Notes under the pieces: generated by a model | What the model saw: only the letters and a program-made list of their open reading frames with translations | Told to the model about the DNA's origin: nothing | The model's database searches: none | In this document: positions 3,861-60,492 of the stretch, in pieces | Layout: every line of letters starts with the position of its first letter | How positions within the stretch are numbered: the stretch's first letter is position 1 | Made by a program: the position numbers and the translations under genes | NCBI RefSeq assembly: GCF_016026235.1 | Contig: NZ_CP065613.1 | Reading direction: 5' to 3' (one strand) | DNA length: 64,000 nucleotides | Source of the DNA: Escherichia coli | GTDB taxonomy: Bacteria > Pseudomonadota > Gammaproteobacteria > Enterobacterales > Enterobacteriaceae

Positions 3861-3947
3861 GTAGGCCGGATAAGGTGCTTGCACCGCATCCGGCATCAAC
3901 GCCTGCACATTGTCGGATGCGACGCCGGGGCGTCTTATCCGACCTAC
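3861..3947. repeat. REP/BIME palindromic repeats in phnE-phnD intergenic region
   Basis: gtaggccggataagg...gcatccggca and gtcggatgcgacgcc...cttatccgacctac motifs. Confidence 0.7.
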
Positions 3948-6418: not shown

Positions 6419-6599
<181 letters not shown>

Positions 6600-12250: not shown

Positions 12251-12319
12251 ATTGAACTCTTAAGGTTCACTTAATCTCTGCCGCGCATACTCTCCTCCAG
12301 ATTAACGGAGGAGAGTGCA

Positions 12320-12409
12320 ATGAAAAACCGTGTTTATGAAAGTTTAACTACCGTGTTCAGCGTGCTGGTGGTCAGCAGCTTTCTTTATATCTGGTTTGCC
12401 ACGTACTGA
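12320..12409 (+). CDS. pmrR: small membrane protein PmrR-like (29 aa)
   Basis: ATG 12320, MKNRVYESLTTVFSVLVVSSFLYIWFATY, stop 12407..12409; preceded by GGAGGAG SD; overlaps 3' end of basS on the opposite strand. Confidence 0.6.
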   Translation: MKNRVYESLTTVFSVLVVSSFLYIWFATY

Positions 12410-13485
12410 TCTTTCTTCAGCCGTATCCAGGCGCGCGTGCCAGAAGTCTCTTGCCGGTTTTGCAGGAAAAACTGCCCGTGATGCAACTGTGTAATGCGGC
12501 TGACAATACTTAACCCCAGACCAATCCCGCCATAACGGCTGTCCATACGTACAAACGCTTTACTCAACTCCCCGCATTTACTCTCATCAATACCCGGTCC
12601 TTCATCTTCAACGGCCATGACCGCTCCGCTATCTTCTTGCAGCTTAATCATAATGTTGCTGCCTTGCGGGCTGTAACGATGGGCGTTTTCTACTAGGTTT
12701 CGCAATAACATCCGCAGCAGGGTTGCATCACCCTGAACGGTGATGTCGGCGGCGCTCTCTGGCAATAGCAGGGTTTGCTGTCGCTGGTCGAGCATGGTAC
12801 TGAGTTCGTCATACGAGGGGAGAATGACATCTTCCAGCAGTTTTACATGTTGATAATTACCGGAAGAAAATGACTGTCCGGCACGCGCCAGTTGCAGCAG
12901 CTGGGAGACGCTCTCCATCATCTGATCAAGCCGTGCCACTAACGGTGCTACATCAATGTGATGCGTTTTCGCCAGCAGTTCCAGATGCAAACGTACCCCC
13001 GCCAGTGGCGTTCGCAGTTCGTGCGCGACGTCAGCGGTAAATAACCTTTCGTTATCCAGCGTGCTGGTCAGGCGACTGACCAGATCGTTCAACGCCGAAA
13101 CCACCGCTTCGATTTCGAGGGTGGCGCTGTGAATGGCAATGGGCGTTAAGTTGTCGGCGGTGCGCGCTTCCAGCTCTTTTTGCAGCTCCGCCAGCGGGCG
13201 GGTGATGCGGCGTACCGCCTGATAGCAGATAAATAGCGTCAGGCTGACCATAAAGACGCCGGGGACAATCAGGCTGGCGACCGCCTCGCGGATCTCACGC
13301 ATGATGTGGCGATCGTTGTTGCGATTGTCGCGTAGCGCCTGCTCAAACAGCTGAATCTGCTCGGTACTTTCATGCCATAGCCAGAAGACGCTGATCAGCT
13401 CAAACACCAACAAAATGGCCCCGATGGTCAATATCAGCCGTTGGCGCAGCGATATTGGTCGGCGCAGAAAACGCATCAGATTCAA
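12385..13485 (-). CDS. basS: sensor histidine kinase BasS/PmrB
   Basis: 366 aa ORF; H-box ADVAHELRTPLAG; HATPase motifs; start overlaps basR stop. Confidence 0.9.
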   Translation of the reverse strand: MNLMRFLRRPISLRQRLILTIGAILLVFELISVFWLWHESTEQIQLFEQALRDNRNNDRHIMREIREAVASLIVPGVFMVSLTLFICYQAVRRITRPLAELQKELEARTADNLTPIAIHSATLEIEAVVSALNDLVSRLTSTLDNERLFTADVAHELRTPLAGVRLHLELLAKTHHIDVAPLVARLDQMMESVSQLLQLARAGQSFSSGNYQHVKLLEDVILPSYDELSTMLDQRQQTLLLPESAADITVQGDATLLRMLLRNLVENAHRYSPQGSNIMIKLQEDSGAVMAVEDEGPGIDESKCGELSKAFVRMDSRYGGIGLGLSIVSRITQLHHGQFFLQNRQETSGTRAWIRLKKDQYVANQI

Positions 13486-44059: not shown

Positions 44060-44135
44060 TGGTGCCCGGACTCGGAATCGAACCAAGGACACGGGGATTT
44101 TCAATCCCCTGCTCTACCGACTGAGCTATCCGGGC
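44060..44135 (-). tRNA. pheU: tRNA-Phe (GAA anticodon)
   Basis: Reverse complement reads GCCCGGATAGCTCAGTCGGTAGAGCAGGGGATTGAAAATCCCCGTGTCCTTGGTTCGATTCCGAGTCCGGGCACCA (76 nt with encoded CCA). Confidence 0.97.
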
Positions 44136-58208: not shown

Positions 58209-58244
58209 GCAATATGATCCTACCCACGTAATATGGACACAGGC

Positions 58245-59111
58245 CTAAGCGAGGTTCTGGTTTTCAAATTGTTCCGGACTGAGGCCGCCACACCAACTGT
58301 GCCGCCGCCACCGATTGTAATCACATTCGATATAATTAAACACCGTTGCCCGCATTATTTCCCAGCTGATAAAGTGTTCTCCATGGATACATTCCACTTT
58401 CAGCGAATGAAAGAAGCTTTCCACGCAGGCATTATCGTAGCAGCAACCTTTTGCGCTCATACTTCCACGCAGATTATGCCGCTTCAGTTGCGCCTGATAA
58501 TCTGCTGAACAGTACTGGCCTCCACGGTCCGTGTGAACGATAACGTTCCGGGGCCTCTTACGCCGCCACAGCGCCATCTGCAGGGCATCGCAGGCCAGTT
58601 GCGCCGTCATGCGTGGCGACATTGACCAGCCAATAACGGCACGTGACCACAGGTCAATGACCACTGCCAGATACAGCCAGCCTTCATCTGTACGTAAGTA
58701 CGTGATGTCTCCTGCCCACTTCTGGTTCGGGCCACTGGCGTAAAAATCCTGCTCCAACAGATTTTCTGACACAGGCAGGCCGTGTGCGCGGTAGCTGACC
58801 GGGCTGAACTTCCGGGAGGCATTTGCCCTCAGTCCCTGACGGCGCAGGCTTGCCGCCACGGTTTTTACGTTAAAGGGGTAACCCTGAGCACGCAGTTCAT
58901 CCGTCAGGCGTGGGGCACCGTAACGCTGTTTTGACCGGGTAAAAGCCGCGAGGACAACGCTGTCGCAGTGTTGGCGGAACTGCTGACGCGTGCTTATCCT
59001 TGTCCGCCGCTGACACCACGTATACCAGCCGCTGCGGGCCACCCGGAACACGCGGCACATTGCTTTGATGCTGAACTCAGCCTGATGTTTTTCAATAAAG
59101 ACATACTTCAT
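58245..59111 (-). CDS. insF: IS3 transposase OrfB (DDE integrase domain)
   Basis: 288 aa; [21 protein letters not shown]...; ATGA overlap with orfA stop. Confidence 0.9.
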
Positions 59112-59407
59112 TTCAGGCGCTTCGCGAAGTATGTCGCGGCCTTTTGGAGGATAGCCAGCTCTTCATCCCGTTCTGCCAGCTGGCGTTTGAGACGTGCAAT
59201 CTCGGTAGACATCTCCAGTTCACGTTCAGAAGACGTCTGCTGATTTTGCTGTTTACTGCGCCAGTTGTAGAGCTGTGATTCATACAGGCTGAGTTCACGG
59301 GCTGCGGCAGTAACACCGATGCGTTCAGCAAGCTTCAGGGCTTCACTGCGAAATTCAGGCGAATGCTGTTTACGGGGTTTTTTACTGGTTGATACTGTTT
59401 TTGTCAT
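59108..59407 (-). CDS. insE: IS3 transposase OrfA (HTH)
   Basis: Start [29 protein letters not shown]; ~99 aa. Confidence 0.88.
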
Positions 59408-59580
59408 GTGAGTCACCTCTGACTGAGAGTTTACTCACTTAGCCGCGTGTCCACTATTGCTGGGTAAGATCAATAACGGTACGACAGCTGTGTCGTGCCG
59501 TTTGTTTTCTCTGCGATAGTCACAAAGGTAATAGTTGAAATTCCCCTGCCACCTGGCAAAATATCCGTTCAACCATCAGC

Positions 59581-59630
59581 TTTGCAGGACGACCTGCAAA
59601 CGCGTCTTTTCACCGGGGACGGCCCCAATT
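59581..59630 (+). ncRNA. guanidine-II riboswitch (mini-ykkC) in gdx leader
   Basis: Two short hairpins with ACGR loops: gcaggACGAcctgc (59584..59597) and ggggACGGcccc (59615..59626), followed by SD GGAG and gdx ATG at 59645. Confidence 0.8.
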
Positions 59631-59644
59631 CTCCGGAGCCTGAT

Positions 59645-59962
59645 ATGTCCTGGATTATCTTAGTTATTGCTGGTCTGCTGGAAGTGGTATGGGCCGTTGG
59701 CCTGAAATATACCCACGGCTTTAGTCGTTTGACGCCGAGTGTTATTACTGTGACGGCGATGATTGTCAGTATGGCGCTACTTGCCTGGGCGATGAAATCG
59801 TTACCAGTAGGGACGGCTTATGCCGTGTGGACGGGTATTGGCGCAGTCGGCGCGGCCATCACCGGCATTGTACTGCTCGGTGAGTCCGCTAACCCGATGC
59901 GCCTGGCGAGTCTGGCGTTAATCGTATTGGGGATTATTGGTCTGAAACTCAGCACTCACTAA
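59645..59962 (+). CDS. gdx: SMR-family guanidinium exporter
   Basis: Start [22 protein letters not shown]; 105 aa, 4 TM; ORF-track upstream extension is probably not translated. Confidence 0.9.
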
Positions 59963-60492
59963 CTACCGGGCTGCTGTACCCAAATAAACTTACTGACATC
60001 AAACCCTTCCCGGGTCGCGACTGCCAGCATCTCCTGTTTCACTTCGTCAGAAATGGTTGGCGTGCGGGAGAGTATCCACAGGTAGTCGCGGTCCGGGCCG
60101 CAAACCAGCGCATGGCGGTATTCCCGATCAAGTGCAATGACGTTATAACCGCCATAGAAAGGACCAAAGAATGACACTTTCAGCGCAGCGCGAGTTGGTA
60201 CGCCGGTAAAGTACGCTTTCCCTTCACTCTGCTGCCACATTCCTCTGTCAGGGTTATAGCCTTTATTAATGACATTCAGGCCGCCGTCATCACGCAGGCT
60301 GTATGTTGCGGTGACTTTTTCCAGTCCACGTTCAAAGCGGTGATCAAAACGGGCAATCTCATACCAGGTACCGAGATAGCGTTTAGCGTCGAAATTATTC
60401 ACTACGGTCACGCCACGCGGCGGCGTAGGAGAACTGCAGGCAACGACCAGAAATGCAGCTGTCGCTGCGGCAACGAGAGGGAGCAGGCGCAT
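59959..60492 (-). CDS. blc: outer membrane lipocalin Blc
   Basis: 177 aa; lipobox VVACSS. Confidence 0.9.

Follow-up and report, generated by a model that had tools for sequence, protein, structure and literature searches.

The window analyzed here, a 64,000-nt stretch of Escherichia coli DNA, contains the efp-ecnAB-sugE-blc-ampC-frd locus of that species, with ecnB upstream of gdx (sugE) and with blc and ampC downstream of it on the minus strand. The gdx product was recognized by the NF008512 SugE equivalog profile at 193.5 bits (cut-off 126) across residues 1-104, with Glu13 in place, so that both the full-length equivalog match and the conserved membrane-embedded Glu expected of the Gdx family were found. 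Its nearest solved structures are 6wk5 and 6wk8 (SMR; E = 1.5e-32), and EmrE is far behind (~1e-10). The gdx region is 100% identical to that of locus L001, whose product, WP_000118482.1, is the same protein as in K-12 MC4100. Two hairpins in the gdx leader, P1 and P2, together match a guanidine-II aptamer, and the coordinates of all features are collected in Table 1.

Table 1. Features of the gdx (sugE) leader and its surroundings, in window coordinates
Feature	Position	Strand	Details
Terminator-like hairpin and T-run	59475-59502	+	Of the upstream ecnB gene
Promoter-like site	59535-59562	+	TTGAAA, 16-nt spacer, CAAAAT; TG before the second hexamer (consensus scan)
Guanidine-II aptamer	59581-59627	+	Rfam RF01068, 49.3 bits against a gathering score of 32
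P1 hairpin	59581-59600	+	8-bp stem UUUGCAGG/CCUGCAAA, ACGA tetraloop 59589-59592
P1-P2 linker	59601-59614	+	14 nt, CGCGUCUUUUCACC; G59604, C in K-12
P2 hairpin	59615-59626	+	4-bp stem GGGG/CCCC, ACGG tetraloop 59619-59622
Candidate OFF pairing, excluding P2	59616-59651	+	Predicted; minimum-energy and consensus folds; duplex energy -13.8 kcal/mol
Shine-Dalgarno core GGAG	59635-59638	+	6 nt before the start codon
gdx (sugE) CDS	59645-59962	+	105 aa, SMR-family guanidinium/H+ antiporter, Glu13 present

The promoter-like site is likely to be the gdx promoter, which would place the transcript start ~10-12 nt before P1; its TTGAAA hexamer is retained in the Citrobacter-type ortholog. The terminator-like hairpin directly follows the ecnB stop codon in uninterrupted genomes. 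We infer that this ecnB terminator is the 5' limit of the gdx transcription unit and that, with the promoter-like site, it would bracket the probable start.

In the window, ecnB and its terminator are separated by a full-length IS3 copy (58215-59472; 1,258 bp; 99.9% identical to annotated IS3 copies) with its transposase genes on the minus strand. From the element it is 4 nt back to the ecnB stop codon and 108 nt on to the aptamer, and a 3-bp target duplication, ATA, borders it at 58212-58214 and 59473-59475. A search of the 5,426 complete E. coli genomes found this IS3 junction in none of them, and loci without the insertion bear out the empty site. No effect of the insertion on the riboswitch is expected because the promoter-like site and the aptamer are both untouched. 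Transcription of gdx from IS3 was considered and is unlikely; the end of the element facing gdx is transposase-proximal and is transcribed away from the gene, and the ecnB terminator and the promoter-like site lie intact in between. The best full-length IS3 match, H83 (NZ_CP065615.1 3191383-3192640, E. coli FDAARGOS_943), is in another strain and lies under or next to an ampC annotation, which points to a separate IS3 insertion into this part of the chromosome.

Read directly, the letters of 59581-59630 are tttgcaggACGAcctgcaaa cgcgtcttttcacc ggggACGGcccc aatt. An earlier note, made from the letters of this DNA, had described two tandem GC-stem hairpins, each capped by an ACGR loop, ahead of a Shine-Dalgarno (SD) sequence and a start codon, and these are indeed what is seen. 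P1 is spelled tttgcagg-ACGA-cctgcaaa. The conserved core GGACGRCC occurs twice, as GGACGACC at 59587-59594 and as GGACGGCC at 59617-59624, each time with two G-C pairs closing the loop, and the two copies supply the 16 conserved nucleotides of the class. Guanidine-II riboswitches are defined by two ACGR-capped hairpins with a linker of 7-40 nt (PMC5558903); the loops here are ACGA and ACGG, and the linker of 14 nt lies within that range. P2 is followed by the SD after 8 nt and by the ATG (59645-59647) after 18 nt, which is the leader position expected of the class, and the gene that follows is a SugE/Gdx equivalog. The sequence GGAGCC was unchanged across orthologs in the ortholog leader comparison, and the same GGAG is marked as the SD in PMC13064478. 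Some measurements of the earlier note need adjustment. Its spacing of ~17 nt is 18 nt when taken between the 12-nt cores (59597-59614) and 14 nt between the full stems; its P1 core, caggACGAcctg (59585-59596, 4 bp), is correct as far as it goes, but the true stem has 8 bp; and its extent of 59581-59630 has the right start, with an end that runs 3-4 nt beyond the aptamer.

The whole window was scanned against Rfam 15 at gathering thresholds. The covariance-model search for mini-ykkC that had been proposed as a check was positive: RF01068 was matched well over its gathering score (Table 1), with E = 9.5e-07 for the whole window against all 4227 Rfam families and E = 4.5e-09 in a local search. 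Positions 1-48 of the model, its full length, are covered and both GGACGRCC cores are aligned, with one outer P2 pair non-canonical in the Rfam alignment. Together with the NF008512 equivalog and the literature on the same leader, this match bears out the proposal of a guanidine-II architecture ahead of an SMR guanidinium exporter. No other riboswitch model was matched in the window in the Rfam 15 scan, guanidine-I, -III and -IV included. A match to RT-17 at 59542-59603 was dismissed as chance (16.9 bits against a gathering score of 40.4; E = 0.94). The other matches at gathering thresholds (12251-12416 +; 3864-3944 +; 6420-6496 -; 6520-6596 -; 44063-44135 -) are the sRNA STnc630 (178 bits), three naRNA4/REP-type elements (69-107 bits) and one tRNA. 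It had also been stated that gene-oriented annotation usually misses the element, and none of the three RefSeq E. coli records inspected lists a regulatory feature there.

The pattern GGACGRCC-N(5-35)-GGACGRCC has a single match in the 64-kb window and occurred in 0 of 100 dinucleotide-preserving shuffles of it. When a genome collection was scanned for the bare tandem pattern, at least 132 matches in at least 120 loci (L002-L121) were obtained, and the chance matches came mostly from high-GC genomes such as Nocardiopsis, Modestobacter and Solirubrobacter. Extended hairpins were present in 13 of the at least 132 matches listed, and six of the seven tested among these reached the Rfam threshold; a Gdx-like ORF lay downstream in only one of the at least 132. 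The bare GGACGRCC tandem is not diagnostic in GC-rich genomes and is unfit for use alone outside moderate-GC genomes. Its frequency by chance in such genomes is what could be said for regarding the two hairpins as chance GC-rich palindromes with no regulatory role.

Conservation bears directly on that reading. Within the 5,426 complete E. coli genomes, the stretch 59474-59965 is present in 5,424, and the 95-nt leader (59566-59660) is present at 95% identity or more in 5,420; this leader is identical in 1,121 E. coli records, O157:H7 among them. Orthologs for comparison were drawn from plasmid and E. coli collections. Homologs that reached the Rfam threshold are a Citrobacter-type sugE leader (L122, 47.2 bits), the Klebsiella pneumoniae leader (L123, 43.4 bits) and four distant instances recovered from other genomes (L113, 45.8 bits; L013, 42.6 bits; L022, 37.4 bits; L055, 32.4 bits). 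In Klebsiella, the P1 stem is CUUACGGG/CCCGUAAG and differs from that of E. coli at three pairs, all of them compensated by double changes, while P2 is invariant in the E. coli, Citrobacter-type and Klebsiella leaders. Over six distinct sequences, 85.9% of cells were paired, against 67.8% in shuffled controls. The covariation score was 0.497, against 0.167 when shuffled; 0 of 500 shuffles scored as high, and slid-partner controls reached at most 0.139. Seven pairs were changed on both sides, namely six of the eight P1 pairs and one of the five P2 pairs, in what is a small sample of six distinct sequences. By this sequence comparison, the P1 and P2 stems covary across orthologs and distant members, in agreement with the curated family.

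A chance origin of the hairpins is therefore already refuted, and retains practically no probability, because the Rfam score is well over threshold, the motif is absent from all window shuffles, the stems covary, the element is near-universal in E. coli and ligand binding has been published for the identical sequence (PMC9300104, PMC5486947). [quoted passage not shown]

This riboswitch class was described in 2007 and validated in 2017, and Sherlock et al. 2017 is reportedly the primary validation paper. The E. coli representative has itself been studied in some depth. Huang et al. crystallized UUUGCAGGACGACCUGCAAA with guanidine (PDB 5NDI); these are the same letters as 59581-59600, and the construct, named "E. 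coli P1_8bp: UUUGCAGGACGACCUG(BrC)AAA", corresponds to that interval apart from its bromo label (PMC5486947). Schamber et al. applied NMR and SAXS to a 49-nt aptamer from E. coli sugE, with a P1 loop of ACGA, a P2 loop of ACGG and a linker given as 13 nt, and reported a guanidinium KD of 130 uM and a kissing-loop interaction (PMC9300104). A 47-mer of the E. coli sugE aptamer has been followed by smFRET (PMC9094411). The literature on the E. coli sequence agrees that each ACGR loop binds guanidinium and that the loops associate by kissing (PMC5486947, PMC9300104, PMC9094411). The published aptamer constructs presumably carry the K-12 linker allele. A 2025 review names E. coli as a typical host of the class, which it describes as a predicted translational ON switch (PMC12186494). 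The phenotypes that depend on gdx are enhanced by guanidinium (PMC13064478); together with the ZX-1 deletion from the same paper, described below, this lends indirect support to activation of gdx by guanidine in vivo. The identity of the element and its overall ON-switch logic for the guanidinium exporter gdx can, taken jointly, be regarded as close to certain. The element is already known, in E. coli itself, and is an ordinary reference instance of its class.

The constructs in the structural papers left out the expression platform; the folding carried out here covered the leader including the SD and the AUG. In the minimum-energy fold, P1 is kept (pairing probability ~1.0), and P2 is only ~10% populated in the predicted ligand-free ensemble. 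The predicted OFF pairs join GGGAC (59616-59620) with GUCCU (59647-59651), including the G of the AUG, as well as GGC (59621-59623) with GCC (59638-59640) and CC (59625-59626) with GG (59635-59636). The leader has a predicted fold energy of -27.6 kcal/mol, which becomes -26.1 kcal/mol when both hairpins are forced to form. K-12, Citrobacter-type and Klebsiella leaders share this predicted alternative with the window; across the four, forcing P2 costs 1.5-4.2 kcal/mol, and the consensus fold shows the alternative as well. The hairpin energies are -5.6 kcal/mol for P2 and -9.8 kcal/mol for P1, and duplexes of P2-derived strands with the SD region are calculated at -12.2 to -13.8 kcal/mol.

These folds suggest a mechanism for the switch. 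In the ligand-free leader, P1 would be folded and the weak 4-bp P2 would be mostly open, and the open P2 nucleotides (59616-59626) would pair with the SD (59635-59640) and the start-codon region (59647-59651), hindering ribosome binding. Guanidinium bound to the loops would then stabilize the P1-P2 kissing complex and capture P2 as a hairpin. This capture would free the ribosome-binding region, and the exporter would be translated.

Several further results qualify the predicted fold. The whole leader is not unusually stable, with z = -1.46 and 16 of 200 shuffles folding as well. The pairs of the OFF helix, which overlap the SD and codons 1-3, are all invariant and so give no covariation signal, either for or against the helix. 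The SD core itself has a mean unpaired probability of 0.26 versus 0.27 between the two folds and is ~75% paired in both. When P2 is formed, the SD is predicted to pair locally with codons 2-4, and it is only the wider SD-to-AUG region that opens, from 0.46 to 0.58. Competition between P2 and the ribosome-binding site was present in two distant members (L022 and L055) and absent in the two others (L113 and L013), and was accordingly rejected as a family-wide rule.

A deletion described by Kojima and Ito is informative about the masking strand. Their strain ZX-1 expresses gdx constitutively owing to a 20-bp deletion (PMC13064478), whose reverse complement, CCGGGGACGGCCCCAATTCT, equals window 59613-59632, i.e. 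P2 and six bases. The deletion takes out the P2-derived partner strand and leaves the linker and P1 intact, and it fits best with a model in which the OFF state is P2-derived. We place the probability that the OFF-state pairing is specifically P2-derived a little short of even.

A different partner for the SD has been put forward in the literature. For the E. coli aptamer, the OFF state is stated to rest on an anti-SD in the P1-P2 linker, which is pulled off the SD when preformed P1 and P2 kiss (PMC9300104, PMC9094411), and the CCUCU of the K-12 linker is in fact partly complementary to GGAG. The calculated energies speak against this scheme, since the best duplex of the linker with the SD region reaches only -3.5 kcal/mol with either allele and is weaker than that of the 16S anti-SD (-5.8 kcal/mol). 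None of the folds predicted for the E. coli (window and K-12), Citrobacter-type and Klebsiella leaders contains such a pairing, its key position varies (C in K-12, G in the window, U in the Citrobacter type), and the linker is still present in the constitutive ZX-1 deletion (PMC13064478). We consider masking by the linker unlikely.

The SD could also be masked from further upstream, with AUCAGCUUUG (59575-59584), drawn from the 5' leader and the P1 5' strand, pairing with CGGAGCCUGAU (59634-59644). Here the calculated duplex is much stronger than that of the linker (-11.1 kcal/mol), and Reiss and Strobel have proposed for Pseudomonas aeruginosa that the SD pairs with the linker and the 5' end of P1 (PMC5558903). 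However, P1 is the most stable local element in the predictions and is the first to be transcribed. The partner strand is moreover intact in both ZX-1 and a natural deletion strain, strain 167, and yet ZX-1 is constitutive. These observations make upstream masking a very improbable account of the E. coli leader.

The ZX-1 effect was itself seen as raised gdx mRNA, by RNA-seq with n = 1 per condition (PMC13064478), and control could for that reason act mainly on the amount of mRNA and not purely on translation initiation: poorly translated transcripts might undergo Rho-dependent termination or be degraded by RNase E, or P1 might serve as an attenuator. Guanidine-III has been reported to govern RNase E access (PMC9094411, PMC12186494), and a terminator scan flagged P1 with CGCGTCTTTT (59581-59610) as terminator-like. 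Against this, the T-run has only four T's, begins 6 nt past the P1 stem and is not conserved in Klebsiella; published descriptions of the class call it translational (PMC5558903, PMC12186494); and a change in mRNA can be secondary to translation. Control chiefly at the mRNA level is, in our estimation, distinctly unlikely. P1 as an intrinsic terminator was rejected on the spacing and length of the T-run, and the scan flag at 59581-59610 is probably a false positive.

Returning to P2-derived masking, a wider reading is tentatively proposed for enterobacterial gdx leaders, at a probability somewhat lower again than that of the pairing by itself. In place of the two preformed hairpins and linker anti-SD of published schemes, the ligand-free state would have P2 opened up, its loop and its two strands all engaged with the SD and the start codon, and guanidinium would act by capturing P2 into the kissing complex. 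On this model the linker polymorphism would be neutral, and strains that have naturally lost P2, such as strain 167, would carry constitutive-exporter alleles.

Naturally occurring variants of the leader were encountered in the course of the comparison. The linker SNP at G59604 (C in K-12 MC4100, U in the Citrobacter type) turns the putative linker anti-SD CCUCU into CGUCU and leaves the predicted folds unchanged. E. coli strain 167, a urine isolate (NZ_CM132950.1; L126 ~2536-2537), has a natural 29-nt deletion corresponding to window 59602-59630, which removes the linker and all of P2 and keeps the SD and gdx; it is the sole such case among 5,421 genomes with a match. By its extent, this deletion resembles a natural analogue of the lab-evolved ZX-1 deletion. 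In the Salmonella plasmid pN17S520 (CP082705.1; L124 601-652), which carries a Citrobacter-type sugE, homology to the leader starts inside P1, at about window 59593. The 5' half and the loop of P1 are replaced there by unrelated sequence, and no Guanidine-II match was obtained for this leader. A shortened sugE-leader match was found in at least two plasmids among the matches listed.

As a discovery the element carries little weight, as it is the reference E. coli example of its class and a crystal structure of the same hairpin exists. It does illustrate that a 47-nt riboswitch can be recognized by eye from the letters, though it is unannotated in the three RefSeq records inspected. Its research value lies solely in asking which strand covers the ribosome-binding site when no ligand is bound. 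In the E. coli leader, the published linker anti-SD scheme is poorly supported by sequence and energy, and it is cheaply testable. The linker SNP, the P2 deletion of the urine isolate and the P1-truncated plasmid copies could be used as they stand to test the mechanism and constitutive Gdx expression, a trait relevant to how well cells tolerate guanidinium, quaternary ammonium compounds and caesium.

Compared with the known E. coli sugE/gdx representative, the loops ACGA and ACGG, the linker length, the SD position and the downstream gene are all the same in the window. The differences from K-12 are one linker base (G59604 for C) and the IS3 copy upstream, and neither touches the 16 conserved nucleotides. 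The Citrobacter-type sugE leader of blaCMY-2 plasmids (L122) and the ecnB-sugE leader of Klebsiella pneumoniae (L123) share with E. coli the architecture, P2 and the region from GGAGCC to AUGUCCUGG, and differ from it in their linkers and P2-to-SD spacers, whereas some Citrobacter-type sugE plasmids (L124) are without the 5' half of P1. Guanidine-I (ykkC), -III and -IV riboswitches have in common with this element their ligand, the classes of genes they regulate (Gdx/SugE exporters and guanidine carboxylases) and their ON action (PMC5558903, PMC12186494). Their folds are unrelated to it: guanidine-I is a large transcription-acting aptamer, guanidine-III is a pseudoknot and guanidine-IV is transcription-acting.
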